Positions 3,827 to 59,515 of a DNA stretch of 64,000 nt are shown here, piece after piece (positions within the stretch are counted from its first letter, which is position 1; every line of letters starts with the position of its first letter). The notes beneath the pieces are model-generated. The model was not told the DNA's origin, did not search any database, and saw nothing but the letters and a program-made list of their open reading frames with translations. A program made the position numbers and the translations under genes. This DNA comes from Pseudomonadales bacterium (lineage in GTDB: Bacteria > Patescibacteriota > Microgenomatia > UBA1400 > PJMF01), in assembly GCA_020632265.1 (NCBI GenBank), contig JACKFW010000001.1, positions 401,892-465,891 on the forward strand, read 5' to 3'.

Positions 3827-3993
3827 GGTTCGAGTCCCAGACCAACCTGTCCTATCGGGGGTATATTAGTGAAAAAGATTGGTATATAGTCATAATTAAA
3901 CCTATAATTGTAAAAGCTCCCCCGACAGGTCGTTACTCGAACCGATTTAGCCTGGAGAACAAATGTTGAAAAATATGTTATGGGATTTTTGTT
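3827..3993. repeat. repeat family copy E2 (L-arm, spacer, R-arm, extension b with mini-ORF)
   Basis: GGTTCGAGTCCCAGACCAACCTGTCCTATCGGGGG ... AAAAGCTCCCCCGACAGGTCGTTACTCGAAC ... CCTGGAGAACAAATGTTGAAAAATATGTTATGGGATTTTTGTTT. Confidence 0.8.
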
Positions 3994-4039
3994 TAATTAT
4001 TCTAAATCTAATTGATATATTAATATACAAACTTAGCTT

Positions 4040-4342
4040 TTAATTTTTATTCTTCATTCTTAAGTAATTTTTTCCATTTTTTGCATTAACAGTTTCCTCT
4101 ATTACAAAACCGTTTTGATTATATAAACTAACAGCAGCCTCATTAGTTTCATCAACTTCTAAAGAAATGGTACCAGTAATCATTTCTCGTATTTTTTTTA
4201 AAAGACGAGTAGCTATACCACGTCTTCTTTGATTTTCATCCACAGATAAATCTTGTATATAGAAACCTTCTTCTCTTCTATTTTTTCTAATTTTAGCGCT
4301 TCCTACGACTTTACCACCCTCTATTTCTTCTATATTTCGCAT
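4040..4342 (-). CDS. GNAT family N-acetyltransferase (small)
   Basis: GNAT motif A-like VDENQRRRGIATRLLKKI. Confidence 0.6.
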   Translation of the reverse strand: MRNIEEIEGGKVVGSAKIRKNRREEGFYIQDLSVDENQRRRGIATRLLKKIREMITGTISLEVDETNEAAVSLYNQNGFVIEETVNAKNGKNYLRMKNKN

Positions 4343-4522
4343 AATTACTCCCAGTATGTTTTATTTGCATTATTATAGCAAATTATTTTCATTTAATTAA
4401 CTTCACATACCAAAAGAGTTTTACTTAAAAAATATATTTATCCTCCTAAGCTGCCTCTTTCATAAAATTATATCTATACAACAATTAAAGACTCAGTGTG
4501 GAAATATCTCAATTAAAAAAAA

Positions 4523-4652
4523 TCCCAGGCTAACCTGTCCTATCGGGGGAATATTTGTGAAAAAGGATTGATATATGGATGTAATTAAACCTATAATTTA
4601 AAAGCTTTCCCTACTGGACTCATTACGGAACGGGTATGAGGAAGAATTGCTG
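4523..4652. repeat. repeat family copy E3 (truncated L-arm, spacer, R2-arm)
   Basis: TCCCAGGCTAACCTGTCCTATCGGGGG ... AAAAGCTTTCCCTACTGGACTCATTACGGAACGGGTATGAGGAAGAATTGCTGA. Confidence 0.75.
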
Positions 4653-4695
4653 ACTATTTCAAAAAGAGACATTAATGAATTTGAAGCATATTGTC

Positions 4696-5001
4696 CTAAA
4701 ATAGTCCAGAAAAGAGAAGAACTAAAACTCCAATAGTGATAACTGCAAAGATTGCTATTGTTTTAACAAATAAGTTTACAGCATCTTTTTGCTTTCCTTC
4801 AATAAAAAGCATAAGAGGTTGGTAAAAAAACAAGAACGCCATTACTGCAACAGAAAGGGTAAGTACAAATAAAACTGTGATTGGAGCAAAAAATGTGTCA
4901 GGCTTATCCCTTAACGGTTGAGTTACAAAGTTCATAATTGAAACAACAAGAAATATATATGCTGAAGCACTAAAAGCATTAACAACAGGATTTTTAGACA
5001 T
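4696..5001 (-). CDS. small integral membrane protein
   Basis: 101 aa with three predicted hydrophobic helices. Confidence 0.45.
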   Translation of the reverse strand: MSKNPVVNAFSASAYIFLVVSIMNFVTQPLRDKPDTFFAPITVLFVLTLSVAVMAFLFFYQPLMLFIEGKQKDAVNLFVKTIAIFAVITIGVLVLLFSGLF

Positions 5002-5092
5002 AATGAAATTATATACTAAAATTGCTCTTCATATTAGTCTATGTTTAAAAAATACTCAAGAAATAAATAACTATTGAACATACTGTGCTAAA

Positions 5093-5317
5093 ATGAGTAC
5101 TATGAAATTAACTAACGACAGTTATGTCATAACAATGGGAACAAAAAACTTTACTGAAAAATATTATCGTGATAAAGATGGATGGGTAAAGATATCTGCA
5201 AAAGGAAATATGTTTCGTATGACTGCAGAACAATTTCTTAATCATTTACTTCCTGCTATTGCAGAAGTTAAACCAAACCTGACTTGGAAAGTAAAATATA
5301 TTCCAAAAGAAGATTAG
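5093..5317 (+). CDS. hypothetical protein
   Basis: 74-aa plus-strand ORF inside the otherwise minus-strand array. Confidence 0.35.
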   Translation: MSTMKLTNDSYVITMGTKNFTEKYYRDKDGWVKISAKGNMFRMTAEQFLNHLLPAIAEVKPNLTWKVKYIPKED

Positions 5318-5345
5318 ATTGATTTAATGGTATAAATTAGACTTT

Positions 5346-5426
5346 GCTCCCCCGCCGGGTCGTTTCTCGAACTAATTTAGCCTGGAGAACAAATGTTGAG
5401 AGATTTGTTATGGGATTTTTGTTTGA
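5346..5426. repeat. repeat family copy E4 (R-arm plus extension b with mini-ORF)
   Basis: GCTCCCCCGCCGGGTCGTTTCTCGAACTAATTTAGCCTGGAGAACAAATGTTGAGAGATTTGTTATGGGATTTTTGTTTGA. Confidence 0.75.
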
Positions 5427-5441
5427 AAAAAATGAAGGTGC

Positions 5442-5828
5442 TTATATTATTTGATTAATAAGATCTAACATTTTCTCAGAAAAATCTTGAGGTCTTTGAG
5501 CTATATCGGTATCAGAATGATTTTTGAATCTAGGATCTTGAATTTGAATCATTAATGATTTTAGCCTGTTCAATTGTTCTAATGAACTTTTTCTTCCTTT
5601 AAGAACATAACCCCAAGGCACAGAAATTAAATACGCTTCCGTTTGCCAACCACTACTTTTTAACATCTCGTCTTTTAACAAAGCACGAAGATTCCTAGCA
5701 TCTTGAAGAATAGTAATTTCCTCTAACGAGAATGGAACATCAATCTTCACAGTTCTATCATGTTCTGGAAAATAAAATTCATAAAATGTGTTACCAACTA
5801 CAGGTTCATCATCTTTTCTTTTTATCAT
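5442..5828 (-). CDS. hypothetical protein
   Basis: 128-aa ORF between E4 and the next unit. Confidence 0.45.
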   Translation of the reverse strand: MIKRKDDEPVVGNTFYEFYFPEHDRTVKIDVPFSLEEITILQDARNLRALLKDEMLKSSGWQTEAYLISVPWGYVLKGRKSSLEQLNRLKSLMIQIQDPRFKNHSDTDIAQRPQDFSEKMLDLINQII

Positions 5829-5850
5829 TTTTAAATCCTTAATGTAATTG

Positions 5851-6135
5851 TTAATTACTATAACGAGCTCTTTGTCTCACTAAGTACTCCTTATTAGGAA
5901 ATTCTAAACTCTGATCTGTATACCATTTTTCTAATCTATCTAATAATTCTAAATTGTCCGCATCTGAAAAATCTGTTGACTCTTTTTCGATAATCATTTC
6001 TGTATTAATCATGCTCCTCACTAAGTCAGGAGGAACTTGGGTTGGGTCAACAAATGAATCCATTCTTTGTTTAATCAAACTCAGGTTATCACGATAATTT
6101 TCTATTATTGTTGGTTGTAACTTGTATTCCTTCAT
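5851..6135 (-). CDS. hypothetical protein (start trimmed to internal Met)
   Basis: Track ORF 5851..6186 reads into the E5 L-arm; MKEYKLQ start at 6135 is more plausible. Confidence 0.4.
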   Translation of the reverse strand: MKEYKLQPTIIENYRDNLSLIKQRMDSFVDPTQVPPDLVRSMINTEMIIEKESTDFSDADNLELLDRLEKWYTDQSLEFPNKEYLVRQRARYSN

Positions 6136-6167
6136 ACTAACGCATATTATAGCAAAAAAAATTGAAC

Positions 6168-6300
6168 GGTTCGAGCCCCAGGCCAACCTGTCCTATCGGG
6201 GTATATGTATTGAAAAAAGATTGGTATATAGGCATAAATAAGCCTATAATTTAAAAGCTCCCCCGACAGGTTGTTACTCGAACTAGGAGGTGGGTGGAAA
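6168..6300. repeat. repeat family copy E5 (complete: L-arm, spacer, R-arm, extension a)
   Basis: GGTTCGAGCCCCAGGCCAACCTGTCCTATCGGGG ... CCTATAATTTAAAAGCTCCCCCGACAGGTTGTTACTCGAACTAGGAGGTGGGTGGAAA. Confidence 0.85.
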
Positions 6301-6305
6301 ATTAT

Positions 6306-7475
6306 TTATTTATCACTAACAAACCATTTTCTTCTTGCAAAATATAATATACTTAAAATAATCAATAAAATAAATGAGTTAAACATTAGGGCTGAAGTTA
6401 ACCCATATCTATCTCCAACAAATCCAAGAACTGGACCAAAACCAGCATAGATAAATCTTCTAATTAAATTCATAAATGAAAGTACTGTAGCTGCACGATT
6501 AGTTGGAACAAGTGCTAATACCTTATGAGAAATTAGTGTTTGATTTATTACCATAAAAATACTAAAAAATGCCCACAACGGAATTACGTAAATCCCAGGA
6601 AAAGCTCCTAGTACAAATAAAGAAATAATTGTAACTAAACTCATAGTAATAAATGGTCTTTTTATCAGTTTCTCTAAATTATTTATTTGTGATGATGCAA
6701 GAGCTGCGAGAATGTTAAAACTTGCGAAAATTACACCAAAATAAACCACTGGTACATTTAACATTTGTAAATATGGTTGTGAAAACCAGTTTGTTGACCA
6801 AATTAGAGCATTAAACGAAGCAAAAAATAGAATAAACCATAATACTCTCTTTTCTTTAGTAACAATCTTCAAACTTTCTTTAATAATTTGAACATATTCG
6901 GTTCTTTCTTCCCTAGGAAGCTCTTCTGAAGTTTTGGCAAAAAATAAACTAGTAATAAACGCTAAAAACGTTGAAACTGCGGTCACTAATAAAGTTAAAC
7001 TCAATGAAATTGAACCCAATAAACCACCCAACACATTACTGGTAGCTCTGGACATACTGGAGAGACCACGGACTTTCCCCTCTACATTTTTATATTCAGA
7101 TTCTCTATTGTTTGACTTTAGTGATTCGTGTAAAAATGCACTATCAGCCCCAGAAATGAGGGCTGAACCAACACCAAGAATTAGTTCTCCAATTATAAAG
7201 TGCCAAAAAACGTTTCCCATTCCATAAATAAAAAATCCTAGTGAGAAAAAAAGTGCGCCAAAAACCAAGCTTATTCTTTTCCCAAAATAATCAGCTAATG
7301 CTCCAGTTGGTAGTTCCAGAAAAACTACACTCACTGCATAAATTGACTGCAATAACATTATTTGAGAAAAATTCAGTCCTTTTGATTGCCAAAACAAAAC
7401 AATAACTGGAGCAAAAAATCCTAAGTTATTAAAAAACTGAAAAGAATAGTATTTTTTTTCATTACTAAATGTCAT
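6306..7475 (-). CDS. MFS transporter
   Basis: 389 aa with ~11 TM helices and MFS motif A GALADYFGKRISL. Confidence 0.7.
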   Translation of the reverse strand: MTFSNEKKYYSFQFFNNLGFFAPVIVLFWQSKGLNFSQIMLLQSIYAVSVVFLELPTGALADYFGKRISLVFGALFFSLGFFIYGMGNVFWHFIIGELILGVGSALISGADSAFLHESLKSNNRESEYKNVEGKVRGLSSMSRATSNVLGGLLGSISLSLTLLVTAVSTFLAFITSLFFAKTSEELPREERTEYVQIIKESLKIVTKEKRVLWFILFFASFNALIWSTNWFSQPYLQMLNVPVVYFGVIFASFNILAALASSQINNLEKLIKRPFITMSLVTIISLFVLGAFPGIYVIPLWAFFSIFMVINQTLISHKVLALVPTNRAATVLSFMNLIRRFIYAGFGPVLGFVGDRYGLTSALMFNSFILLIILSILYFARRKWFVSDK

Positions 7476-7505
7476 TTAGTAATTATAGCAGGCAAATATA
7501 TCTCA

Positions 7506-7637
7506 GTTCGAGTCCCAGGCTAAGCTGTCCTATCGGGGTCATATTAGTGAAAAAAGGATTGATTTATAGGCATAAATAAGCCTATAATTTAAATGCTCCC
7601 CCGACAGGTTGTTACTCGAACTAGGAGGTGGGTGGAA
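7506..7637. repeat. repeat family copy E6 (complete, extension a)
   Basis: GTTCGAGTCCCAGGCTAAGCTGTCCTATCGGGG ... AAATGCTCCCCCGACAGGTTGTTACTCGAACTAGGAGGTGGGTGGAAA; 95% identical to E5. Confidence 0.85.
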
Positions 7638-7639
7638 AG

Positions 7640-8305
7640 TTATTTATTCAAAAACTTTTCAATTTCAGACATTACAATATCGCATTCATCCTGAGACAGT
7701 CTAAAATCATGTCCCATGTCTGGCTGACGAACAACGTGTGGGTTTTTTGCATTAGCCACTATTCTTTCTGTATCGGTGGGAGGAATGCTTTTATCATCTA
7801 AAGCAATAAATATCATAATTGGCTTATGAATATTTTTAACTTCATTAGCAGCTGAATATTGCATTCCGTCAGTAACAAAAGCATAAGGAATATCAAAAAA
7901 TCTAAACTTCTCTGAATTATTTGGAAGATCTCTTTTTGAATGTCTTGACTTATCTTTTTCCCAACGCAATGATGGACCAATTCTATCTGGAGGTGGACAA
8001 AGGGAAATAATTCTGGTAACTTCTGAAATTCTAGCTCCTGCAACAATAGCTGTAAAACCTCCTAAGCTATGACCTATTAAAATTATTTCTTCTAGATTTT
8101 GCTTACTGTAAAAATTAACTCTATCTTTCACTTGCTTAATATAATTGGTAATTAAATAGTTTTTTGTATCGCCAGTTTCCCATAAGTGACAGGGATCTAA
8201 TATTTCGACTGTATAACCAAGCTCCCTCAACCTTTTCTCAAAACTTATCATATGTAAATAATCAGGAGAATCTAGGTATCCTGGAAGTAATAATGCAACT
8301 TTCAT
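7640..8305 (-). CDS. alpha/beta-hydrolase fold serine hydrolase
   Basis: Nucleophile elbow ILIGHSLGGFTAIV (GxSxG) plus downstream D/H. Confidence 0.7.
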   Translation of the reverse strand: MKVALLLPGYLDSPDYLHMISFEKRLRELGYTVEILDPCHLWETGDTKNYLITNYIKQVKDRVNFYSKQNLEEIILIGHSLGGFTAIVAGARISEVTRIISLCPPPDRIGPSLRWEKDKSRHSKRDLPNNSEKFRFFDIPYAFVTDGMQYSAANEVKNIHKPIMIFIALDDKSIPPTDTERIVANAKNPHVVRQPDMGHDFRLSQDECDIVMSEIEKFLNK

Positions 8306-8307
8306 AT

Positions 8308-8928
8308 TTACTTTTCCCCCAATCCTATTCTTGTTTTACAAAGTTCTAAAACAAGCGGAAATTCAGTAAATACTCCTCCCATATGTCCTCCCCCTTTAAC
8401 AAAAATTTTACTGCTATTAATTTTGTTGGCAAAATCAATTGCAATTTCCTTAGTAACATATGGATCGTTTTCACTTATGAGAGAATAAGAAACAGGAATA
8501 ATTTTTTTTATATTATCAAAATTAAACTTTTCATTATAAAAATCGCTGTTAATTTGATCAAAAATTGGTACTCCAAGATTTTGAATAAATGGTGAGACAA
8601 AAATAGCTGAATCTAAGTTTACATCAAATTTTGAGACCATGTTTAATACAAATGCTGGAGATAGTGAATGACACACTACAATAAACTTCTCATTTTTAAC
8701 TTTATCCAACACATCACTTTCAAAATAGGTAAACCAATTCTTCAAAGTTTGGTTTTTGGGAATATAATCACCAGTTTGCTCTAATTCTTTTTCAGCAACT
8801 TCGTAATTGTCTACTGGCATTTGAGGTCTTATTACTTCTTGCTTTAATTTAACTAGCTCTTGATCTAACCAAGGGAACCAATTACCATCTCTAGAACCAA
8901 ATGTTCCATGAAGAATTAAGAATTTCAT
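8308..8928 (-). CDS. alpha/beta-hydrolase-like protein (YdeN/RBBP9-like?)
   Basis: 206 aa with VVCHSLSP elbow-like segment; translationally coupled to the upstream hydrolase. Confidence 0.45.
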   Translation of the reverse strand: MKFLILHGTFGSRDGNWFPWLDQELVKLKQEVIRPQMPVDNYEVAEKELEQTGDYIPKNQTLKNWFTYFESDVLDKVKNEKFIVVCHSLSPAFVLNMVSKFDVNLDSAIFVSPFIQNLGVPIFDQINSDFYNEKFNFDNIKKIIPVSYSLISENDPYVTKEIAIDFANKINSSKIFVKGGGHMGGVFTEFPLVLELCKTRIGLGEK

Positions 8929-8958
8929 ATGGAGGAATTATAGCAAAGTTATTTATTT

Positions 8959-9057
8959 GTTCGAGTCCTATCGGGATCTATTAAATCTACTTTAGGAAAA
9001 AAGTGGTGCTCCCCCTATTGGACTCGTTACGGAACGGATATGAAGAGGGGTTGTTGA
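8959..9057. repeat. repeat family copy E7 (short L-arm, alternate spacer, R2-arm)
   Basis: GTTCGAGTCCTATCGGG ... AAGTGGTGCTCCCCCTATTGGACTCGTTACGGAACGGATATGAAGAGGGGTTGTTGA. Confidence 0.75.
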
Positions 9058-9480
9058 GGATTTCTGCAAGTGAAACTAGTGTGATTTTTAAAGAATTTAG
9101 AAATACACTATTCGTTATTTCACAACCAATTTAATAAAAAACTTATTGTCGCAACTCTTTTACTCGAATATACAGGTATTTTAGCTAATGTGTGTTAACC
9201 TCTAGATTCTGAATTTGCACAGTGAATAGCACCAATTAAAACTTCTGACTTATTACCTTGCTTGTTTCATTTTGAAACAATTAACAGCAAATTTCTTGAG
9301 GATACAAAATAATACTTAAGCTGGTACAATTAGACAAGGCAAAATGTGTCATTGAATTATATGACCCCGTTGTAATTATTAAAGAATAATTTTCCAGAAT
9401 ATAAGAAACTTTAACAAAATTGGTCGTTTACTTATAATAAGATGATATAATAATATTGTAAATTATTATAAGGATTAATT

Positions 9481-10023
9481 ATGATTTCAAAAGAAGAAGA
9501 AGTGATACAAAAAACACTTATTACTCCATACAGAATAAATACACATATAGCCAATTATTGTGACCATGAATTATTTGAAAGTGAGATCCAAAAGACTCAG
9601 ACAGGTACTAAAGCAGAAGTACATATTACAAATGGTGAACCTCCATCTAGTGCAGATTATTGCGATGTAAATGCTACAGTGAGTAGGGGTTTTCAAAAAG
9701 AAATTGATGGAATTCATTATTCAGTTGATGAAATGCGTTTAACTCCAAATGGAAAAAACCAAGTATTAGTAATTGAAGTATTTAATCCAATAGGAGTTGT
9801 GCCAATTGAATTAGCTGTTTTAACACAGAGAAGAACAGTTGCCCGAACTGATAAGCCAGCAAAAATTGTGCTCAAAATTTATAGGTATGAAGGCAAAGAA
9901 GTTTCTGTTATTGATTATGTTTCCAATCGAGCTGAAATTCAAAACTCTCCATATAGTCCACCATCCTTTTTAGTCACTGATGAAGAAAAAAAACTTATGG
10001 AATTACTAGAAATGAAATCTTAA
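9481..10023 (+). CDS. hypothetical protein
   Basis: 180-aa plus-strand ORF after a 420-bp AT-rich region carrying several TATAAT-like boxes. Confidence 0.45.
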   Translation: MISKEEEVIQKTLITPYRINTHIANYCDHELFESEIQKTQTGTKAEVHITNGEPPSSADYCDVNATVSRGFQKEIDGIHYSVDEMRLTPNGKNQVLVIEVFNPIGVVPIELAVLTQRRTVARTDKPAKIVLKIYRYEGKEVSVIDYVSNRAEIQNSPYSPPSFLVTDEEKKLMELLEMKS

Positions 10024-10080
10024 AACTTCCTCCAACCCTCAAATCTTTCTCTAAAGTGACGTATGCGGAATATTAAAGTA

Positions 10081-10142
10081 ACTTGAGGAAAAGTGGTACT
10101 TCCCCCGACAGGTAGTTACTCGAATTAGGAGGTGGGTTGAGA
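10081..10142. repeat. repeat family copy E8 (R-arm variant plus extension a; no L-arm)
   Basis: ACTTGAGGAAAAGTGGTACTTCCCCCGACAGGTAGTTACTCGAATTAGGAGGTGGGTTGAG. Confidence 0.65.
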
Positions 10143-10152
10143 ATTATCTACA

Positions 10153-11085
10153 CTACAGTTCTGCGCTATAATCTGCAATAAATTGCGCAGTCTTCCAATC
10201 TTTTCTAAAAGCATTGTAAGCTATTGCGTCCGCTCCAATTCTCAATTGGTAACACAACAATCTTTGCTCTATATTTGCAGTATTGGAGTTAGGATCTGTC
10301 TTAAAGTCCTCGATTAGTCGCTGTACCAAATGTATATCTTTTGAAGCAGGAAACCATGGCTCACAAAACTTTATCCAAGCTATTTCATATAGAGGATCTC
10401 CAAAGAAAGCAGAGCCCCAGTCAAGAACTGCAGAAATTTTACCCTTATCTACTAAAACATTTCTATTAACAAAATCTGAGTGAACAACACCTCTTACCTC
10501 TGGGCAGTGATCTATTAGATTCTGAAATTTTCTCCAAAGCTCATTGTATGAATCCATTCCCATGTCTGAAGCCTCTAGGATTTCTCTCCACCCATGATTT
10601 AAGCTTCCCTCTGACTCATTTCTATCATCAAGTAAAAAAGCTTTCCAGCTATCATAAATTGCCTTGCCATCTTTATTCCAAAAACCAAAACCTGTGCTAG
10701 TAGACATATCTATTGCTCTTAAAGCACGAAAAATTTCAATTACAGATTGAGAAGCAATTTCTAGATCATTCGGAGAAAGGGATTCAAGAAAATTACCAAC
10801 AACAAATGGAGAAATTGCATAGTAGCGATTATTTTCTTGTCCTATATCTTTTATAGGCGGCACTGGCAGTAGATCGCTATTAAAAGTATGGGCAAATGCG
10901 TCCCTCTGAAAATTATCAGGAACATTTCCCCACCTAATTACATTTTTAACACCTTTTACAACAAAAGTGAATGCGTATGACCATGCTCCTTCACCAAGTG
11001 ATTGAACTGAAGAAACATTCTTACCAAATTTGGCTACTAAAAAAATTTCTGTTTCTTTTGCTGATACTCTTAGCTCTTCTGTCAT
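10153..11085 (-). CDS. aminoglycoside/antibiotic phosphotransferase (APH) family kinase
   Basis: Brenner motif VVHSDFVNRNVLVD and DWGSAFFGDPLYE; APH/ChoK fold. Confidence 0.7.
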   Translation of the reverse strand: MTEELRVSAKETEIFLVAKFGKNVSSVQSLGEGAWSYAFTFVVKGVKNVIRWGNVPDNFQRDAFAHTFNSDLLPVPPIKDIGQENNRYYAISPFVVGNFLESLSPNDLEIASQSVIEIFRALRAIDMSTSTGFGFWNKDGKAIYDSWKAFLLDDRNESEGSLNHGWREILEASDMGMDSYNELWRKFQNLIDHCPEVRGVVHSDFVNRNVLVDKGKISAVLDWGSAFFGDPLYEIAWIKFCEPWFPASKDIHLVQRLIEDFKTDPNSNTANIEQRLLCYQLRIGADAIAYNAFRKDWKTAQFIADYSAEL

Positions 11086-11186
11086 AAGTGAATTTTAAGT
11101 GTGCCTAAATCTGGAACTTCTTTCTACATTCTTCTTGAAATTTTCAAGAATTTCTATTATAAAAGGATAATTATACACGAATGAAA

Positions 11187-11324
11187 GTTCGAGTCCTACT
11201 GGGATCAAACAAAATTACTTGAGGAAAAAATAAAAGCTCCCCCGACAGGTTGTTACTCGAACCAATTTAGTGTGGAAGAAAAATGTTGAGAAATTTGTTA
11301 TGGGATTTTTGTTTGATAAAGTAA
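11187..11324. repeat. repeat family copy E9 (short L-arm, alternate spacer, R-arm, extension b with mini-ORF)
   Basis: GTTCGAGTCCTACTGGG ... AAAAGCTCCCCCGACAGGTTGTTACTCGAACCAATTTAGTGTGGAAGAAAAATGTTGAGAAATTTGTTATGGGATTTTTGTTTGA. Confidence 0.8.
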
Positions 11325-52666: not shown

Positions 52667-52673
52667 ACTTGAT

Positions 52674-53117
52674 TTAGTTTCCAGCAGCTAGAGCAAGAGA
52701 AAATACTAACATTAATAAACCAAAAATTATCCAGGAAATCAAATTTCGTTTTTTACCTTTTTCGTCAATTTTTACATTATCCCCAACTTGCTTCCAACCT
52801 TTACTAAGAAGGCTGTTGTAATTATCTTTATTGATTGTAAATGCAGAATAAATCATGACTAAATTACCAATTATAGATTGGTTAATTTCCAGTCCAGCCA
52901 TCGCAAACAAAATATCTTGAATGATGAACAAAAAAAACATGATGACAAATAACATCGAGCCTTTCTTCCACATCCCCCATCCAATATAAAGTAGCGGACC
53001 CAAGATCAATCCACCCAAACTAAATCCACTAGTACGGACTTCTTTAGTTTTATTTTTATCATCTGGATGTTGAAGTTTTACATATTTTTTCATATTTTCC
53101 TTTCCTAGTATTGGCAA
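52674..53117 (-). CDS. membrane protein
   Basis: Four hydrophobic segments. Confidence 0.45.
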   Translation of the reverse strand: MPILGKENMKKYVKLQHPDDKNKTKEVRTSGFSLGGLILGPLLYIGWGMWKKGSMLFVIMFFLFIIQDILFAMAGLEINQSIIGNLVMIYSAFTINKDNYNSLLSKGWKQVGDNVKIDEKGKKRNLISWIIFGLLMLVFSLALAAGN

Positions 53118-53374
53118 AATGTTTCAATACCATCCAAGTCATAGTAAGCATCTTGATAATAACCACTCTCTAAATTTGACTTAGCAGAATCAATAGCATA
53201 TTGAAATTCCTTTTTGCATCTCTCTAAGTCTGATATTTCGTACTCCAAATCTGAAACTTGTCTTTTCAAACTAGAGACTTCACTTTTATAAGAATTGTTT
53301 CTAGAGCCACTCCCTAAATTTATTAATATAAAAATGAAGATGATAGCCCCACCAATGATTAGAGAATTTTTCAT
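53105..53374 (-). CDS. small secreted coiled-coil protein
   Basis: Signal-like IIGGAIIFIFILINLGSGS then helical charged region. Confidence 0.4.
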   Translation of the reverse strand: MKNSLIIGGAIIFIFILINLGSGSRNNSYKSEVSSLKRQVSDLEYEISDLERCKKEFQYAIDSAKSNLESGYYQDAYYDLDGIETFCQY

Positions 53375-53682
53375 GATTTCTTCCCTGGTATTTGATTAGC
53401 TGAATAGAAATATAAAAATGAAGTGATCAAATCAATACCAATCCAAGTACTTTTGTCCAAATAAACAGGAAATATAGGATTGAAAAGCAATGCAGCAATA
53501 CCAAGCAAAGAAGCTAAGATACTTTTCTCAACTTCGTAAAAGCGATAGGCTGCATATAAGCCACTTACAAAAATTACTAATCGAAGAAATTGATAGTAAC
53601 CATATGGTAAATTGCTAATAGCAAGAACTAGCATTAAACCAGAGACAATTAAAATTGTTTTCAAGATTTGGTTATTTTTCAT
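53371..53682 (-). CDS. small membrane protein
   Basis: 103 aa with three TM helices; overlaps the previous gene by 4 nt. Confidence 0.4.
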   Translation of the reverse strand: MKNNQILKTILIVSGLMLVLAISNLPYGYYQFLRLVIFVSGLYAAYRFYEVEKSILASLLGIAALLFNPIFPVYLDKSTWIGIDLITSFLYFYSANQIPGKKS

Positions 53683-53749
53683 AAACTGGTTTTTAACCTA
53701 CTAACTATTTTTAGTCAAAATCATTCACATCTGTTTGAGGAAAGCTTTT

Positions 53750-53870
53750 AGACGCAAAAAGCCTCCCACGGTCGGTGACTTTCGTCACCCGCATCTCTTT
53801 CGAGATACGACGGTTCAACGTAACCCCATGAGAGGCTTGCTACCGTTGAACCGATTTTTCACCATGCCCA
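53750..53870. other. GC-rich structured noncoding segment (candidate ncRNA or recombination site)
   Basis: Hairpins GGTGAC-TTTC-GTCACC and ATCTC-TTTC-GAGAT; 10-bp stem CGGTTCAACG/CGTTGAACCG interleaved with AAGCCTC/GAGGCTT; ~50% GC. Confidence 0.4.
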
Positions 53871-53963
53871 TTAAGACTAATGAGTTTAGGCGATTTGTAG
53901 TGCCATTATTATATCAAAGTAATTTACTTTCCCATAGAAGCTCGGGGTATAATTAGCACTAAC

Positions 53964-54821
53964 ATGAATATCAATATAAATAGTAATGGCTATCTGGAAG
54001 AGTCAAATCACGAGTTGTCTTTATTAAAGCAGGTTTTACTGAAACAACCTCTCGTTCTTGAGGATATTGAAAATATAAAACAGGGTTACCAACTTTTAGC
54101 CAAAGTAGTCGCCATTTCTAAAAGAAATGTCCTTGATGTTATTGATCCTAAACTTAACAATTGCTATCAAGAATTGGTAAAAATTGTTAAATCTTCTTAC
54201 GAAAACTTCGAACAAATTATCAATGAAAGATATAACACCGATTCTGCCAAAAGTTTACCTGATTTTTACAGCAATCCGCACATTTTCGGCGATTATCCAT
54301 ACTTCCCATTTACTAGTATTTTCGAAAAACCGCTTGATAGTTGGGATGAAGTCGAAAATAAGCTCAATGAGTCTTTGAACAGAATAACTCAAGCCTACAC
54401 TCTACTTGATATTAAAAACAACAAGACAAACCATGCTAGCTTCTTTAATGAGGTTGAAAAATATTTAGCCAATTTCTTTAAATTTACTTGCGGGGATTTA
54501 GTTTTAGATTTAGAAATACCAGCTCTAATTTACAAAAATGGCACACCACTGCCAATTCAATTAAAGAGAAAAGAAATTCAATTTTTAATCCTTCTGCTAA
54601 GAAACAAAGGTAATTTAGTGAGCTACAAAACGGTGGCTGAGACTCTAGATACAAACTACTATCATCCTGGCTTAGACAATTTAGCTACTGGAGAGAAGCT
54701 GAGACTGTTGAAGAACGATTTGGGGAAAATGCTGCTGCAGGCTGGCATGAGCAGAGATACTTTCAAACAAATGATTACCACCCACGCTACTAAAGGCTAT
54801 GTGCTGAACTGCACAACCTAA
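53964..54821 (+). CDS. OmpR/CadC-type winged-helix DNA-binding protein without receiver domain
   Basis: C-terminus LPIQLKRKEIQFLILLLRNKGNLVSYKTVAETL...KLRLLKNDLGKML...THATKGYVLNC fits the trans_reg_C pattern. Confidence 0.45.
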   Translation: MNININSNGYLEESNHELSLLKQVLLKQPLVLEDIENIKQGYQLLAKVVAISKRNVLDVIDPKLNNCYQELVKIVKSSYENFEQIINERYNTDSAKSLPDFYSNPHIFGDYPYFPFTSIFEKPLDSWDEVENKLNESLNRITQAYTLLDIKNNKTNHASFFNEVEKYLANFFKFTCGDLVLDLEIPALIYKNGTPLPIQLKRKEIQFLILLLRNKGNLVSYKTVAETLDTNYYHPGLDNLATGEKLRLLKNDLGKMLLQAGMSRDTFKQMITTHATKGYVLNCTT

Positions 54822-54917
54822 TTTTTTCCTTTTTTCCTACATTTTTCCTACATTGCGGTTAATGTTGGTTTTTGGTCATAAGACGTATCCTTCAATTATT
54901 GAGGATAAAAAAATCTT

Positions 54918-55166
54918 ATGGATCAAAATACGCAGACAACTACTTCACTAGCACTTGCGGCTTATTTAGCAACATTGGGCTTTCTTTGTGCAAGCGTTAC
55001 ACCGACTGAAGTTAATAACCAACTAGCTTTTCATTTTGATATTTCCGAGGAGGACTTCATGTCTCACTCGGATATTTTTTGGTCAAGAAAAACGAAAATT
55101 GATGGGCTCACTTATTTTGAAGCATTAAAAGTATTAAAAAGTAGGATTTATCAATACAAAAATTAA
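54918..55166 (+). CDS. small conserved protein (paralog of 32847..33098)
   Basis: 82 aa in the same position and with the same motifs as the element A gene. Confidence 0.5.
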   Translation: MDQNTQTTTSLALAAYLATLGFLCASVTPTEVNNQLAFHFDISEEDFMSHSDIFWSRKTKIDGLTYFEALKVLKSRIYQYKN

Positions 55167-55176
55167 GAAAGGATTT

Positions 55177-57432
55177 ATGAAAAAACAACTACTTTCCACA
55201 GGGAGACAGTACATTAGTAAAGGTTTCCCAATTTTCCCAGTCAATTTATGGTGGGATCAAGAAAAACAAAAATGGATGAAGCAACCACTTATTAAAAAGT
55301 GGGAACAACAATCAGTTCCAACTGAAGAAGACTTACGGAAGTGGAGTAACATTTCGAAATTTAATGCTTGGGGTTTAGTTACTGGCAAAAAATCTGGTGT
55401 TGTTGTTTTGGACATTGATAATCCTGATTTAATAAAAGAATTTAATCTCCCCCACACACCCAGGGTTCGTTCAATCTCTGGAGGTTATCATTATTACTTA
55501 GAATATCCCAAAGATGCTGAGGTTAAAAGCCATAAAGGTATCTTGCCTAAAGTCGACATTCGTGCTGATAAAGGGTTCATTGTCATTCCGCCATCAGCAG
55601 CTGACCAAGAACATGCATACACTTGGGAAGTGTCACTTGATGCAGCAGTGCTTGCAAGTATTCCAACTTGGTTAATGGATTTGTTGGAAGTTACTCAATC
55701 ACCAGAATATATCCAAAATAATTTTGACTCTGATAAACCTATAGAGCCAGGAGAACGGCATAAAACTGCTTTACAGGCAATCGGATACTTTTCCCTGAAA
55801 TATAGAGATGAAGACCTGGAAAAAATTTGGCAACGCCTTAATGACTGGATGAAAAGTAAATTCACTATCCAATTTGGACAAGAAGAAATGACTTGGCTAA
55901 AAAAGTCTTTTGACCAATACGCTCCAAGAAATATTACTAACACTAGTGGTAGTAGCTCATCAGAAACAGTTTCAAGTCGAGTAATCAAGCTCATTATTGA
56001 CGACAAGTTTGATCTTTTTAAAACTGAAGATAAAACCACATACATTGGTCTCCCAGATAAACCTCTTACTGTTCTTCCAACTGATAGTGAAGAATTTTTC
56101 GAAGTCGTTTCTCTAAGTTACTACAACGAATTTGGAATACCGCTCATGAAAGATGCTTTAAAGAGGGTTATGCCAACTATACGAGCTTTAATCAACAAAC
56201 AAGGAGAGAAAATAGAGTTGTTCAACCGTGTGGCAGCAAGGGGCGGAATTTTCTTTGATCTGTTTGAAGATGATGTGTTTGTACGTGTTGATATAGAAGG
56301 CGTTAGTTTAGTTGGCGCCAACGTCATTAAGGAAGCGGGACTGCGGTTTGTTCGCTACCCTCATCAAAGAAAACAAGTTAAACCAGACCTAAGTGCATCA
56401 ATTCAAGATGCCTATCGCCTGTTTGATTTCCTAGCAATTAAAGATGAGGAGCAACAAAAATTGTTGTTATGTCACCTAGCAGCTTGTCTTGTTCCCAACA
56501 TTGCTCGGTGCATGCTGGTGCTGCATGGGTCAAGAGGTTCTGCAAAATCAACAACACTAAAATTTGTTCGGTCACTCATTGATCCTGCAAAACCCATGTT
56601 GGTTCGCATACCAGAAAAAGACAATGATCTTCAAATATTTCTAGAAAAAAGTTATTTTTGTTGCTTTGACAATGTTTCAGGCATTTCAAAGCAAGTATCT
56701 GACTCACTGGCAATGATGATCACTGGCGGTGGAACTATCAGTCGCAAACTTTATTCTGATAAAGAAATTGTTACCACTGACCTAAAAAGTTGTTTAGCGC
56801 TGAATGGTATCAATCTAGCCATCCGTGAAGCAGACCTACTAGAAAGATCATTAATTATCGAAACTAAAAGACTAACTGAAGTTAAGTCAGAAGAAGAAAT
56901 TACCAACGAATTTGAAGAGGCTAAACCGATTATTTTTGGTGGCTTGTTAGCTCTTCTCTCCGCATCAATAAAAAGTGTTATTTCTGGGGAAGCAGCTGGC
57001 TACATACCGACTTCCTTCAGAATGGCTGATTATTACCGTTTTGCCTCAGGCGCAGCATGGGGACTGGGAATATCAGATCATGAATTTGATGCGATGTTTC
57101 AAAGAAATGTTAATAGGCAGAATGAAGCCGCAATTGAAAGCTCACCACTTGCTCAAGTTGTAGTCGATTATATGGCTGATAAAGCAGTCCCTGTAGAAAT
57201 GCGCTCCTCAGAACTTTATACATCATTGACTGAAAGAGCTAAGGAAATGGGCGTCGACAAGGGTATGCCCAGAGGCGCTCACATGCTTTGGAAACGACTC
57301 AATCCTCTTCGCATTGATTTGGAAGCAGTAGGTATTGTTGTAGAGCGTGTTGACCGAAATGATGCCTCATACATTCGTGTAGAAAACAAAAAGGTAGCTG
57401 TGGCAGCTGAGGAAGCTGCAAATAACTTCTAA
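55177..57432 (+). CDS. bifunctional Prim-Pol DNA primase/polymerase fused to helicase-like NTPase
   Basis: GVVVLDIDNPD, SISGGYHYYLEYP, GFIVIPPSAADQEHAYTW; Walker A VLHGSRGSAKSTTL; paralog of 33756..36101. Confidence 0.8.
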   Translation: MKKQLLSTGRQYISKGFPIFPVNLWWDQEKQKWMKQPLIKKWEQQSVPTEEDLRKWSNISKFNAWGLVTGKKSGVVVLDIDNPDLIKEFNLPHTPRVRSISGGYHYYLEYPKDAEVKSHKGILPKVDIRADKGFIVIPPSAADQEHAYTWEVSLDAAVLASIPTWLMDLLEVTQSPEYIQNNFDSDKPIEPGERHKTALQAIGYFSLKYRDEDLEKIWQRLNDWMKSKFTIQFGQEEMTWLKKSFDQYAPRNITNTSGSSSSETVSSRVIKLIIDDKFDLFKTEDKTTYIGLPDKPLTVLPTDSEEFFEVVSLSYYNEFGIPLMKDALKRVMPTIRALINKQGEKIELFNRVAARGGIFFDLFEDDVFVRVDIEGVSLVGANVIKEAGLRFVRYPHQRKQVKPDLSASIQDAYRLFDFLAIKDEEQQKLLLCHLAACLVPNIARCMLVLHGSRGSAKSTTLKFVRSLIDPAKPMLVRIPEKDNDLQIFLEKSYFCCFDNVSGISKQVSDSLAMMITGGGTISRKLYSDKEIVTTDLKSCLALNGINLAIREADLLERSLIIETKRLTEVKSEEEITNEFEEAKPIIFGGLLALLSASIKSVISGEAAGYIPTSFRMADYYRFASGAAWGLGISDHEFDAMFQRNVNRQNEAAIESSPLAQVVVDYMADKAVPVEMRSSELYTSLTERAKEMGVDKGMPRGAHMLWKRLNPLRIDLEAVGIVVERVDRNDASYIRVENKKVAVAAEEAANNF

Positions 57433-57441
57433 ACAACCACT

Positions 57442-57612
57442 ATGCTCTCTCAGAAAGCAATCATCGAGTTTCAAAAAATCTACCAAGAAGAACTTGGCAC
57501 TGAAATCTCTATTGAAGAAGCGTCTGAGAGAGCTGAAAAATTTCTTCGCTTATTCAAAATGATTTACCAACCAATCCCAGATAAATGGTTGGAGGAAAAG
57601 ACCGATAAATAG
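57442..57612 (+). CDS. possible small ORF (56 aa), not in ORF track
   Basis: MLSQKAIIEFQKIYQEELGTEISIEEASERAEKFLRLFKMIYQPIPDKWLEEKTDK starts 10 nt after the primase stop; weak RBS. Confidence 0.3.
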   Translation: MLSQKAIIEFQKIYQEELGTEISIEEASERAEKFLRLFKMIYQPIPDKWLEEKTDK

Positions 57613-57670
57613 ACATAAATACATTAAATAAAAGTTTGTGATTTTGGAGGAAAAATAGTATAATAACAGT

Positions 57671-57750
57671 GCACTCAGATACCCTATCGGGCTTTTTAAT
57701 GCCCTCATTGGACAGATCCTGATAGGTCTGAGTGCACCAGTGGGGGCATT
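57671..57750 (+). promoter_or_regulatory. conserved interleaved inverted-repeat element upstream of recombinase B
   Basis: GCACTCAG(57671-78) / CTGAGTGCACCA(57728-39) interleaved with AATGCCC(57698-704) / GGGCATT(57744-50); CCTATC/GATAGG pair; homologous to 38055..38141. Confidence 0.55.
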
Positions 57751-57754
57751 AATT

Positions 57755-59455
57755 ATGCAAATGAAATACTTTATCTACTGCCGAAAAAGCTCTGAGCAAG
57801 AGGATAGGCAAATTCTTTCTTTACCTGCACAGGCTGCCGAATTACAAAACTTAGCTGAAAAAAACAACCTTACTGTTGTTGATATTTTCCAAGAATCTAA
57901 AAGTGCTCACACTGCAGGAAGATCAAAGTTTGATGTAATGATTAAACGTTTTGAGGCAGGTGAAGCCAATGGCATTATTGTTTGGGACGAGTCACGAATT
58001 GCCAGAAACTCACTTGATGGTGGTAAGGTTATCTACATGATGGATTTAGGGCAAATTGTCGAAATTCGAAAGCCTGGAAAAACATATAGAAATACCCCTG
58101 ATGACAAGAGTTGGTTACAAATGTGTTTCATGATGAGTAAAAAAGAGTCTGATGATAAAGGTGTAAACGTTAGGCGTGGTTTACGTACCAAAGCTGAAAA
58201 AGGATGGTATCCATCCTCTTGGACTAAGCCTGGTTATATGTGGGACAACGCTGAACGTGGCAATAAATCATTGCTGATTGATCCAATTAGGTTTCGACTC
58301 ATAAAACAATGTTGGGAGTTAATGCTAACTGGTGCTTACACCACTCCACAAATACTACAAAAATTAAATGATGAATGGGGCTATCGTAGTCCTATTCGCA
58401 AATCCCTTGGTGGCAAACCTATGCATCGAAGCCAGCTTTATAACGTATTTAGTGACCCCTTTTATTATGGTTGGTATGAGTATAAAAACTCAAGCGGTGA
58501 GACTGTCTGGAAAAATGGCAATCACAAACCAATGATAACTGAAGAAGAGTTTAACCGAGTGCAAATGCTTTTAGGAAGAGGTAGTAAGAAGCGAATGAGG
58601 AAGCAAAACTTTCCACTTACTGGGATTATCCGCTGTGGGGAATGTAACGCCATGGTAACTGCAGAAGAAAAATGGCAAACAATTTGTACTAATTGCAAAC
58701 ATAAGTTCTCTTCTCTCAATAAGGATGAGTGCCCTAAATGTCACTTAAAAATTGAGGAAATGGTTAATCCCACTGTACTTCACTACATCTACTATCACTG
58801 TACCAAACGTAAAAACGCAAACTGCACTCAAAAAAGCATATTGGCTGATGATTTGATCAAACAAGTTGATAAAAAGCTTAAGAAGGTAAAGGTGTCTCCA
58901 CGCTTTGTTAAATGGGCTCTCAAGTATCTGGGATCATTGCATGATGAAGAGTCAATTGCTCATACCGCAACAATCACTCAACTACAAAATAGCTATAACG
59001 ACTGTGTGAAACGAATGGATAATTTAGTCAAGTTAAAGATTTCGCCTGCTAACTCTGATGGTTCCCTTCTATCTGATGATGAGTTTTTAGCTCAAAAAAC
59101 AGTTCTTGTTTCAGAAAAAACCAAGCTTGAGGAGAGCTTGAATAACCAAGGGCAACGGGTTAACAACTGGCTTGAAACAGTTGAAGAGCACTTTAACTTT
59201 GCCCTACACGCACGCCACCGCTTTGAGGTGGGCAGTCCCGATGAGAAAAGGGAGATTTTAGTCACAATTGGTTCGAACCTAACACTTCTTGATAAGGTTC
59301 TCGGTCTAGACTTAGAAAATGAGTATGCTTTTCTAGAATATGTGAAGGAAATTGAACCGTCTGTTTCAGAAGAGTTCGAACATGAAAAAAGCGTTGATAT
59401 ATCGATGGATTTAGAGTCGCTATGGGCTCAAAATCGGTTGGTGCTCCCCCGGTAG
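57755..59455 (+). CDS. large serine recombinase (integrase)
   Basis: IYCRKSSEQ catalytic Ser region, DESRIARN, zinc ribbons CGECNAM...CTNCKH / CPKCH...YYHCTKRKNANC; stop TAG at 59453-55 inside tRNA-Asn. Confidence 0.85.
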   Translation: MQMKYFIYCRKSSEQEDRQILSLPAQAAELQNLAEKNNLTVVDIFQESKSAHTAGRSKFDVMIKRFEAGEANGIIVWDESRIARNSLDGGKVIYMMDLGQIVEIRKPGKTYRNTPDDKSWLQMCFMMSKKESDDKGVNVRRGLRTKAEKGWYPSSWTKPGYMWDNAERGNKSLLIDPIRFRLIKQCWELMLTGAYTTPQILQKLNDEWGYRSPIRKSLGGKPMHRSQLYNVFSDPFYYGWYEYKNSSGETVWKNGNHKPMITEEEFNRVQMLLGRGSKKRMRKQNFPLTGIIRCGECNAMVTAEEKWQTICTNCKHKFSSLNKDECPKCHLKIEEMVNPTVLHYIYYHCTKRKNANCTQKSILADDLIKQVDKKLKKVKVSPRFVKWALKYLGSLHDEESIAHTATITQLQNSYNDCVKRMDNLVKLKISPANSDGSLLSDDEFLAQKTVLVSEKTKLEESLNNQGQRVNNWLETVEEHFNFALHARHRFEVGSPDEKREILVTIGSNLTLLDKVLGLDLENEYAFLEYVKEIEPSVSEEFEHEKSVDISMDLESLWAQNRLVLPR

Positions 59456-59515
59456 GATTCGAACCTACAACCTTGAAGTTAACAGCTTCCTGCTCTGCCA
59501 TTGAGCTACAGGGGA
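59444..59515 (-). tRNA. tRNA-Asn (anticodon GTT)
   Basis: Hand-folded cloverleaf: acceptor TCCCCTG/CGGGGGA, D-arm GCTC-AATGGCA-GAGC, anticodon loop CTGTTAA, T-arm GTAGG-TTCGAAT-CCTAC; CCA not encoded. Confidence 0.8.

Follow-up and report, generated by a model that had tools for sequence, protein, structure and literature searches.

The window analysed here, a stretch of 64,000 nt (positions 401,892 to 465,891 of contig JACKFW010000001.1, GenBank assembly GCA_020632265.1), contains a single tRNA gene, tRNA-Asn(GTT), and a 21-kb array of small gene cassettes bounded by short repeats that echo the 3' end of this tRNA; a 35.6-kb insertion with two recombinase-encoding elements, A and B, lies between the array and the tRNA gene (Table 1). 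Coordinates are window positions throughout, the units of the array are described in the sense of the tRNA, i.e. of the window minus strand, and labels of the form Lnnn (L001–L033) denote related loci or contigs obtained from genome and metagenome scans.

Layout of the array

The tRNA-Asn gene ends with ...GGTTCGAATCCTACCGGGGGAG, followed by CACCA, and the plus-strand 8-mer GCTCCCCC is the complement of its acceptor 3' strand (GGGGGA) together with the discriminator G and one trailer base. The first-pass annotation of this DNA had listed 14 exact copies of the 8-mer, all on the plus strand, and had recognised in it the complement of the acceptor end with its discriminator; both statements hold, the trailer base being the only addition. 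Its estimate that fewer than 0.1 copies are expected by chance proved slightly optimistic, as dinucleotide-preserving shuffles yield 0.36 ± 0.59 copies (maximum 3), but the large excess itself stands. Mismatch and profile searches of the window added four degenerate copies of the core (at 3150, GTTCCCTC; at 4604 and 11936, GCTTTCCC; at 10099, CTTCCCCC) and revealed, besides the tRNA itself, no further copy in the interval from 24 to 64 kb. In total there are 17 such repeats, referred to below as R arms, all co-oriented with tRNA-Asn and all situated inside 3150–23892, where they bound 16 cassettes with a core-to-core spacing of 546–3427 bp (median ~1.1 kb). The genes of the array lie mainly on the minus strand, that is, in the orientation of the tRNA, with the R arms at the gene 3' ends.

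The body of the R arm adjoining the core belongs to one of three families: type A (GTTCGAGTAACRACCTGTC, 9 copies), which ends in one of two tails, ...CCAGGCTAAAT (A1) or ...CCACCCACCTCCTA (A2), type B (GTTCCGTAACGAGTCCARTA, 6 copies) and type C (GTTCGGATAAAGYYCCACA, 2 copies). Identity with the tRNA is limited to the 8–9 bp of the core, and the remainder of each arm is the sequence of its family. On the plus strand, a T-loop-like motif comes after the core in all copies (CTCGAAC in type A, ACGGAAC in type B, TCCGAAC in type C), and GGTG precedes the core at 9008 and 16776 exactly as it does at the junction of recombinase B and the tRNA, two details that had been pointed out before, the first of them for most copies, and that we could confirm. 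If the arms and the tRNA are anchored on the core, the GTTCG motif is found 5 bp (types A and C) or 6 bp (type B) farther out in the R arms than in the T-loop of the tRNA. All degenerate cores belong to the array's distal half, which fits the presence of older cassettes farther from the tRNA. A second copy of the tRNA 3' half was searched for in the window and none was found.

Two local features of the array deserve a comment. An open frame of ~108 codons without a start codon (2826–3149, minus strand, no Pfam match) abuts the degenerate core at 3150, which suggests that this distal junction is the oldest one and that it cut into a gene. The units at 4530–4658 and 11862–11990, each composed of a partial type I L arm (the inverted arm described below), a loop, a type B arm and the degenerate core GCTTTCCC, share 95% identity across 129 nt, and the cassettes that adjoin them differ; this pair points to a duplicated or converted junction.

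A cassette consists of a 5' module, one to four genes and an R arm. The encoded products include members of the GNAT, MFS, APH, NUDIX (twice), LapA-domain, YGGT, FHA, Ltp, zinc-ribbon and AAA families and two α/β hydrolases, while several further genes show no Pfam match; the cassette closed by the R arm at 17422 encodes FHA, Ltp and NUDIX proteins and one unassigned product. Pfam scans of the array genes identified no recombinase in any of the 16 cassettes, and no fragments of an integrase or PrimPol gene were found in the 21-kb array. The Phage_integrase domain was not detected in Pfam scans of essentially all window open reading frames of at least 90 aa, nor in the array open reading frames of the related loci.

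The breakpoint at the 8-bp core

Read in the tRNA sense, a unit begins with the R body and continues through the core GGGGGAGC into a loop, which is often followed by an L arm. To see how these parts are combined, 35 sites were tabulated, comprising 29 R-arm units and 6 tRNA-Asn ends, and across them the classes of R body and loop combine freely. The type I loop is joined to R-A (four times), to R-B (twice) and, in L022, to the tRNA body itself, and the type II loop to R-A (three times) and R-B (twice); loop IV adjoins the tRNA in L004 and R-A in L008, loop III adjoins the tRNA in L008 and R-B in L004, and the loop of L027 is joined both to its own tRNA and to an R-B. Pairs of sites with the same R class but a different loop class number 215, as opposed to 14 pairs that agree in both.

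The class switch always coincides with the edges of the invariant GGGGGAGC, and the sequences just beyond are unrelated, so that the fixed point at which the similarity should break, if it marked a crossover, does exist and is the 8-bp core. In L027, where the first core position is C in the tRNA and G in R-B, this position stays with the left flank. Judged from the site sequences, free assortment with a switch at the core is the signature of site-specific recombination, with the strand exchange predicted to occur inside the 8 bp; neither homologous exchange nor decay would be expected to yield a switch exactly at the core. With the breakpoint in this position, a cassette corresponds to a loop (with or without an L arm), a promoter-like site, the genes and an R body, and each unit of L arm, loop and R arm is a chimera of two neighbouring cassettes.

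Related loci and their association with tRNA-Asn

A scan for the type A pattern with one genome per species matched only 3 metagenome-assembled genomes (MAGs) of Patescibacteria/Paceibacterota, on one contig each, and the metagenome scan yielded 16 loci; the genome and metagenome scans used only type A and B patterns, which other arm families would escape. Protein comparison revealed that the right flank of the window, with rpoD and gdh, is conserved beside the related loci, and the relatives of RpoD gave more anchored loci. In four independent populations the syntenic tRNA-Asn lies beside rpoD, and the array starts immediately at the 3' end of this tRNA. The RpoD proteins of these populations are 90% (L022/L011/L012/L015/L009), 84% (L027), 83% (L008) and 75% (L004/L006/L017) identical to that of the window. 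At the arrays that adjoin the tRNA, the tRNA body substitutes for the R arm of the first unit, and in every locus examined all R arms are co-oriented with the tRNA.

Families A and B recur across other Paceibacterota genomes and the genes between the arms differ almost completely among populations, which indicates a turnover of the content around conserved sites. Outside the arrays, neither the remaining 43 kb of the window nor ~150 kb of non-array sequence from related loci contained an R arm; the genome-wide confinement to tRNA-Asn was assessed on the 3 draft MAGs and the related loci examined. The tRNA-Asn gene is present without any unit in L021, L023 and L024, so the empty sites that had been proposed as a check of the association are real, and the two observations that would have weakened it, an array elsewhere in the relatives and arms in both orientations, were not made. 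The earlier suggestion that the repeats are copies of an attachment site stands insofar as they are tied to the tRNA-Asn 3' end, also in the four other populations, but the arms turned out to be families borne by the elements and not scars derived from the tRNA. Contigs of the window's own population from other samples (L001, L031–L033) are 100% identical to the window and break at the repeats. Viral contigs, when scanned, yielded no match to the L arm or to R arms of types A/B and C, and literature searches on such arrays in Patescibacteria returned nothing relevant.

5' modules and promoter-like sites

Inverted L arms (GTTCGAGTCC...CGGGG), already mentioned in the first-pass annotation, are found at 10 units, 30–55 nt left of the core, and two further units carry a complex variant. 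The type I L arm contains a 15-nt insertion, whereas the type II L arm (GTTCGAGTCCTATCGGG) is an inverted near-copy of the tRNA end; of the two complex modules, the one at 23238–23310 is 72% identical to the one listed in Table 1. Several loop classes have no L arm, and loops III, IV and V of this kind nonetheless adjoin the tRNA. At 20849 and 23311 an inverted arm follows the core directly (TGCGTAGACTCGAAC and AAATGAGACTTGAAC in the tRNA sense), and in L024, a relative without cassettes, the tRNA end continues (10013–10070) into ATCGTAGTTCTTACTCGAAC, an inverted T-loop-like arm, and then into a terminator hairpin. The T-loop side of the tRNA and the inverted arm together would make up a palindrome-like site of ~14-8-15 bp, or ~14-8-20 bp (~42 bp) in L024. 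The latter may be the native attachment site, and a palindrome-like site at the tRNA end would match the size of a simple recombinase target. By their sequence, the L arms of types I and II (CGATAGGAC..CTCGAAC) look like the same inverted arm shifted 34–72 nt away.

The pairing of the inverted L and R repeats is register-specific in type I/A units (93.5% of cells, compared with at most 52% when slid), which fold into long imperfect bulged hairpins (about -17 to -20 kcal/mol, z -2.5 to -3.6); the folding of type II units is no better than that of shuffled sequences. The types of the L and R arms match in 6 of 10 units of the array and in 5 of 10 pairs belonging to the same cassette, both proportions being close to the ~0.5 that random assortment predicts, so that cognate and random pairing are not distinguished by this tally. 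An Rfam search of the array at a relaxed threshold identified no family that matches the units.

At the outer end of the L arm, most units exhibit a promoter-like CTCGAAC-N16-18-TATAAT in the sense direction (seen at ~3780–3830, 6120–6175, 7470–7510 and 8925–8965, and also in L022, L008, L027 and L003). The T-loop-like hexamer thereby occupies the -35 position for the downstream cassette gene, and this arrangement suggests that many cassettes may have a promoter of their own. A different promoter-like site, TTGAYA/TTGGTA-18-TATAAT, is present on the plus strand of each type I loop and is among the best of the region. This site is directed into the R arm, hence antisense to the genes of the cassettes, and its predicted start is approximately at the core; its counterpart at the L022 junction would be directed into the tRNA.

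The 35.6-kb insertion

The insertion is bounded by the type C core at 23857 and by the tRNA's own core. It begins with an operon-like block of six tightly packed co-oriented genes (23892–30408), among them an S51-peptidase gene (27140–27715) with 64% identity to a gene that lies between two R arms in L008 (9075–9653); the six-gene block could itself derive from cassettes. Element A follows at 30633–39772 and encodes an Ltp lipoprotein, PrimPol and a large serine recombinase (38123–39772), a layout like that of Element B. The recombinases of both elements are accompanied by PrimPol and possess the Resolvase, Recombinase and Zn_ribbon_recom domains, but they are only 21% identical to each other, and the DNA beyond the recombinase gene of Element A (39773 onward) contains no tRNA-like sequence, which together indicate that Element A uses another site, one inside the island. 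Defence genes are found at 24796–27150 and at 39939–53117; they encode a fusion of an α/β hydrolase and HEPN(AbiV), GmrSD, DUF2779, a complete type I restriction-modification system (HsdR/S/M) and AbiU2. The genes at 52028–53117 have homologues beside the recombinase B element of L029; part of the defence region may be cargo of Element B, the left boundary of which may be situated at 51.9 kb or farther to the left.

The last 13 nt of the recombinase B gene overlap the end of tRNA-Asn. Homologues of recombinase B with 93%, 88% and 80% identity are encoded beside rpoD in L028, L029 and L030, respectively, where their genes adjoin tRNA-Asn at the same junction (...GGGCTCAAAATCGGTTGGT/GCTCCC...) even though the T stems of the tRNAs differ, as does, in L030, the acceptor end. 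The same junction in spite of differing T stems argues that the recombinase B family integrates at exactly this tRNA terminus, in line with the earlier claim that Element B uses the site. A symmetric P' arm was looked for, and no inverted copy of the recombinase B P arm was found in the window or in L028–L030. A LOOT RNA (Rfam RF03000, 96 bits) lies on the minus strand at 53774–53892, at the left end of the Element B backbone, in the position that a helix-turn-helix (HTH, cI-like) gene occupies in the elements of L028, L029 and L030; the RNA may stand in for the HTH regulator.

Most likely the array was already in place when the 35.6-kb composite inserted at the tRNA core, and Element A became nested in it later. 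The array, which adjoins the tRNA in relatives, would be separated from it by 35.6 kb in the window because of this later insertion at the core, in agreement with the first-pass idea that it was pushed outward.

Table 1. Positions of the array, its repeats and 5' modules, the insertion and the tRNA gene in the window
Feature	Positions	Strand	Remarks
Whole cassette array	3150..23892	-	17 R arms, 16 cassettes
R arm, type A	3150..3187	-	degenerate core GTTCCCTC; distal array end
R arm, type A1	3916..3950	-	core + GACAGGTCGTTACTCGAAC + CGATTTAGCCTGGAG tail
R arm, type B	4604..4640	-	degenerate core GCTTTCCC
R arm, type A1	5346..5380	-	without adjoining L arm
R arm, type A2	6257..6293	-	tail AGGAGGTGGGTGG
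R arm, type A2	7595..7631	-	
R arm, type B	9008..9045	-	core + TATTGGACTCGTTACGGAAC; GGTG before core
R arm, type A2	10099..10136	-	degenerate core CTTCCCCC
R arm, type A1	11236..11272	-	with type II loop, non-cognate chimera
R arm, type B	11936..11972	-	degenerate core GCTTTCCC
R arm, type A2	13224..13260	-	
R arm, type A2	14422..14458	-	with type II loop, chimera
R arm, type B	16776..16813	-	GGTG before core
R arm, type C	17422..17458	-	core + TGTGGAACTTTATCCGAAC; without L arm; closes 3.4-kb cassette
R arm, type B	20849..20885	-	inverted arm GTTCGAGTCTACGCA directly across core, giving a 37-bp palindrome-like site
R arm, type B	23311..23347	-	adjacent inverted arm GTTCAAGTCTCATTT
R arm, type C	23857..23892	-	proximal array end; left boundary of 35.6-kb insertion
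Type I 5' module	3823..3913		L arm GGTTCGAGTCCCAGACCAACCTGTCCTATCGGGGG + 55-nt loop; copies 4520-4602, 6164-6255, 7501-7593, 11844-11934, 13132-13222
Type II 5' module	8958..9006		L arm GTTCGAGTCCTATCGGGATC + 30-nt loop; copies 11186-11232, 14371-14419, 16725-16774
Complex 5' module	20776..20848		39-bp palindrome GGTTCGAAAGTCCC..CTCGAACC, spacer, inverted arm at core
Antisense promoter-like sites	3879-3908, 4568-4597, 6221-6250, 7559-7588, 11900-11929, 13188-13217	+	
Insertion between array and tRNA	23893..59442		six-gene operon, Element A, defence island, Element B
Element B backbone	53774..59455	+	LOOT RNA, 285-aa gene, PrimPol 55177-57432, large serine recombinase 57740-59455
tRNA-Asn(GTT)	59443..59515	-	only tRNA of window; last 7 nt + 1 trailer base = 8-bp core

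Proposed mechanism and candidate recombinases

In our opinion the array is likely to be the product of repeated site-specific insertion of recombinase-less cassettes at the tRNA-Asn 3' end beside rpoD, so that this terminus would constitute an integration hot spot in a clade of Paceibacterota (Patescibacteria). A free cassette would be a circle with one attachment site, made up of an R body that mimics the T-loop/acceptor region of the tRNA, the core GGGGGAGC and the 5' module. Recombination between the circle and the tRNA end, inside the core, would leave the tRNA intact, place the 5' module of the cassette next to it and deposit the R body with a fresh copy of the core at the far side. Repetition of this reaction would stack the cassettes in a single orientation, presumably with the newest nearest to the tRNA, until the composite with large serine recombinases, PrimPol and defence genes entered the same core and displaced the array. 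It is known that integration restores the crossover core at both ends and that its repetition gives rise to tandem arrays (PMC7192596).

The cassette recombinase would have to act in trans. A large serine recombinase of the Element B kind is the foremost candidate, with a probability that we put slightly short of even; an unlinked tyrosine recombinase is a distinctly weaker candidate, and other options share what is left. In serine integrase sites the ZD motif lies 5 bp farther out in attP than in attB (PMC3783163), and the shift of GTTCG by 5 or 6 bp in the R arms matches this rule. Recombinase-less modules between direct repeats that are moved by ccrAB are known from the composite islands of the staphylococcal cassette chromosome (SCC) (PMC7029739), while, according to an older survey, tRNA genes were not known as targets of serine integrases (PMC4383910). 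On the other hand, an 8-bp core that is asymmetric, strictly conserved and bordered by inverted arms would be just as suitable for a tyrosine recombinase. Taken to its full extent, the proposal describes a gene-capture platform, in which the tRNA-Asn end plays the role of attI, the cassettes are integrase-less, bear promoters and carry mimics of the tRNA end, a large serine recombinase of a co-resident PrimPol element inserts and removes them in trans, and the attP/attB spacing rule applies; in this complete form we regard it as tentative and rather doubtful.

Several observations weigh against repeated cassette insertion or against the involvement of recombinase B. Neither an excised circle nor an empty/occupied polymorphism nor a moved cassette was seen; the contigs of the window population all have the same order, and the related samples of the L022 and of the L004 populations match one another. 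No recombinase is linked to the arrays of L004, L008, L022 and L027 in the sequence examined, the recombinase B loci of L028–L030 contain no R arms, and comparison of the loop sides with the P arm of recombinase B gave a best in-register match of 10/22, which is not significant. The L arms pair with the R arms, yet compensatory changes are absent and shuffled controls pair as well as the real units, which leaves selection on the hairpin unsupported. The array also includes units composed of an R arm only (5346, 17422), of which a strict model of insertion only at the tRNA predicts none. Finally, canonical serine integrases recombine attP with attB only and not hybrid sites, and serial insertion at a single site would thus presuppose less stringent pairing rules, of the kind seen in Ccr enzymes.

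Alternative explanations

The repeats could be displaced tRNA fragments or att scars of full-size integrase elements that were later stripped by deletion to their cargo, as the first-pass annotation had suggested, and tandem arrays with older elements outward and degenerate remnants have indeed been described in tRNA islands (bioRxiv 10.1101/2020.12.28.424599). The restriction of degenerate cores to the distal half of the array agrees with this explanation, as does the fact that both type C arms close sets of genes with the flavour of an element: the cassette at 17422, with an Ltp gene like that of Element A, and, at 23857, the composite that ends in recombinase B. We nonetheless consider it improbable for the array as a whole. 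The arms are not copies of the tRNA, with which only 8–9 bp are identical, and families A and B are conserved across genomes; fragments that decay independently would not end up with identical sequences and an identical 5–6-bp insertion. As A and B keep their non-tRNA sequence in genomes that share no cassette genes, and as there is no second partial copy of the tRNA, the arms are not decaying tRNA fragments. The lack of integrase and PrimPol remnants in 21 kb points the same way, and the median spacing of ~1.1 kb, often with a promoter-like site, would call for 16 near-perfect strippings. What was taken for stripped elements looks like a series of integrase-less cassettes, many of them with a promoter-like site. 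The cassette at 17422 may be a genuine remnant of a stripped element, and the scar explanation probably holds for type C and not for types A and B. Even less probable, in our view, is a module acting at the RNA level, in which the mimic of the tRNA end and the hairpin would serve as a terminator, stabiliser or processing signal and spread by duplication. The R arms do lie just 3' of the stop codons of minus-strand genes, runs of T follow some of the hairpins (6150–6160, 4510–4520), and the overlap of the L arms with the promoter-like -35 means that a unit separates transcription units; a role of this kind could coexist with the one at the DNA level. However, it explains neither the sharp switch at 8 bp between unrelated flanks nor the use of the tRNA gene as half of the first unit, and there is no Rfam match, no covariation and no terminator signal that would single out the units in the terminator scan.

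An integron-like single-strand mechanism, with the units as attC-type hairpins, the tRNA end as attI and a tyrosine recombinase of the integron type, has in its favour the bulged type I/A hairpins with their register-specific pairing, and the size, gene content and co-orientation of the cassettes, which resemble those of integron arrays. It is very unlikely all the same. We looked for IntI and for the attC polarity and found neither: there is no tyrosine recombinase in the window or in the related loci, and the GTT/AAC polarity is opposite to R''-RYYYAAC...GTTRRRY-R'. The breakpoint, moreover, lies at the top of the hairpin beside the loop and not at its base, each hairpin of the array combines parts of two cassettes, an L arm is lacking in loops III, IV and V even next to the tRNA, the type II units fold no better than shuffles, and compensatory changes were not found. 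The least credible of the alternatives is a dispersed repeat, i.e. a tRNA-derived miniature inverted-repeat transposable element (MITE), which the first-pass annotation had also named, or a palindrome of the kind of repetitive extragenic palindromes and bacterial interspersed mosaic elements (REP/BIME), with an accidental link to tRNA-Asn. In their size (~80–130 bp), palindromic nature and intergenic position the units do recall MITEs or the REP-derived doublets known as REPINs, but all 17 copies form one block in one orientation, this block is tied to tRNA-Asn in five populations, and in each of the three matched species-representative genomes the type A pattern occurs on one contig. In the first unit one arm is replaced by the tRNA body, and the arms of a unit assort independently, which is incompatible with movement of the unit as a whole. 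In the sequences read, the edges of the units showed no target-site duplications, and terminal repeats flanked by such duplications are missing. We rejected the MITE interpretation on the grounds that the halves of a unit come from different neighbours and move independently and that no copies are found away from the arrays; in the comparison with REP/BIME, no Y1 transposase domain was seen.

Comparison with known systems

Repeated insertion of cassettes at tRNA-Asn, as proposed here, shares with tandem tRNA arrays and the tycheposon islands of Prochlorococcus the restoration of the core at both ends and the displacement of earlier elements by later arrivals (PMC7192596), as well as the att-like repeats scattered through an island next to a tRNA (bioRxiv 10.1101/2020.12.28.424599). 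With their recombinase, PrimPol and cargo, Elements A and B resemble cargo-carrying or satellite-like tycheposons, of which a minority use a large serine recombinase. In the known tRNA arrays, each element has an integrase and a true fragment of the tRNA, while here there are 16 units of ~1 kb with mimic repeats; an integrase and a replication module of their own are found in Elements A and B and in none of the 16 cassettes. Arrays of at least three elements are rare, with only 4 in 2168 genomes (PMC4383910). The principle of tandem integration at a tRNA is therefore already known, and what is unusual are the 16 units of ~1 kb, the absence of a recombinase from them and the conserved mimics of the tRNA end.

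SCC composite islands resemble the array in the insertion at the 3' end of one conserved gene and in the short direct repeats between the modules, and the responsible Ccr enzymes are large serine recombinases; for the cassettes described here, the involvement of a serine recombinase is presumed. They also include recombinase-less modules, such as ACME (arginine catabolic mobile element), that are moved in trans by ccrAB (PMC7029739). They differ from the array in that the target is rlmH/orfX and not a tRNA, the modules measure 10–60 kb, and there is no T-loop-like or inverted L arm.

With integrons and clusters of attC sites lacking integron-integrases (CALINs), the array has in common a single point of insertion, small, mostly single-gene, co-oriented cassettes (16 of them here, of 0.55–3.4 kb) that end in a palindromic site of 60–130 bp, and the range of genes, such as acetyltransferases, phosphotransferases, hydrolases and transporters. 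Unlike them, it has no IntI, the sequence and polarity of its sites (GTTCGAG...CTCGAAC on either strand) are not those of attC, the crossover is located beside the loop and not at the hairpin base, many cassettes have promoter-like sites of their own, and insertion takes place at a tRNA end. The array is functionally like an integron or an SCC composite island, yet departs from the definition of both.

As regards the attP and attB sites of serine integrases, the R arms, with their shift of +5/+6, share the position of a common motif ~5 bp farther out in the site of the element (PMC3783163), and at 20849 the tRNA-like arm and the inverted arm would add up to ~37 bp, the size of attB. The att sites of large serine recombinases are imperfect palindromes with a central dinucleotide, ~40 bp long in attB and ~50 bp in attP. 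An inverted arm borders the core at 20849 and 23311 and also in L024; most loops, including types I–V, have no matching second half-site at the core. Integrative mobile elements exploiting Xer (IMEX), such as the CTX phage, and pdif modules likewise lack a recombinase gene and insert one after another at a single chromosomal site. The CTX phage carries two inverted copies of the site ~90 nt apart, which fold into a hairpin. The target of the cassettes is, however, a tRNA end and not dif; nothing here resembles dif, and the locus is not marked by a switch of GC skew.

Patescibacteria have tiny genomes and few recognised routes of gene exchange, and a stockpile of ~1-kb cassettes would be a main source of flexible content for them. 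If the proposed mechanism is true, it would represent a second, independent invention of the integron idea and extend the rule of attachment at tRNA ends to mimics of tRNAs; if a serine recombinase turned out to be responsible, the natural serial stacking of cassettes at one site could be useful for genome engineering. The conserved R-arm families provide a sequence handle for finding such arrays in metagenomes.

Further observations on related contigs

The tRNA-Asn genes of L004 (2385–2689) and L022 (~11340–11661) are interrupted in the anticodon loop by a group I intron of ~230 nt (Rfam Intron_gpI, 107–114 bits), which is the reason why ARAGORN misses them; group I introns in tRNA genes are known for Patescibacteria (PMC13011429). 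A candidate "displaced tRNA fragment" in L004 proved to be the 3' exon of this intron-containing gene. No tRNA gene was detected in the scanned contigs L005, L010, L014, L016 and L018. Three of these, the metagenome contigs L005, L010 and L018, which a GC content of 40–50% sets clearly apart in base composition, exhibit single type-A-like arms (GTTCGAGTAACGTCCWGTM GGGGGAGC), of which the one in L010 can pair with an upstream GGCTCCC, and GC-rich matches are also present in L014 and L019. The arm family may extend to other lineages.

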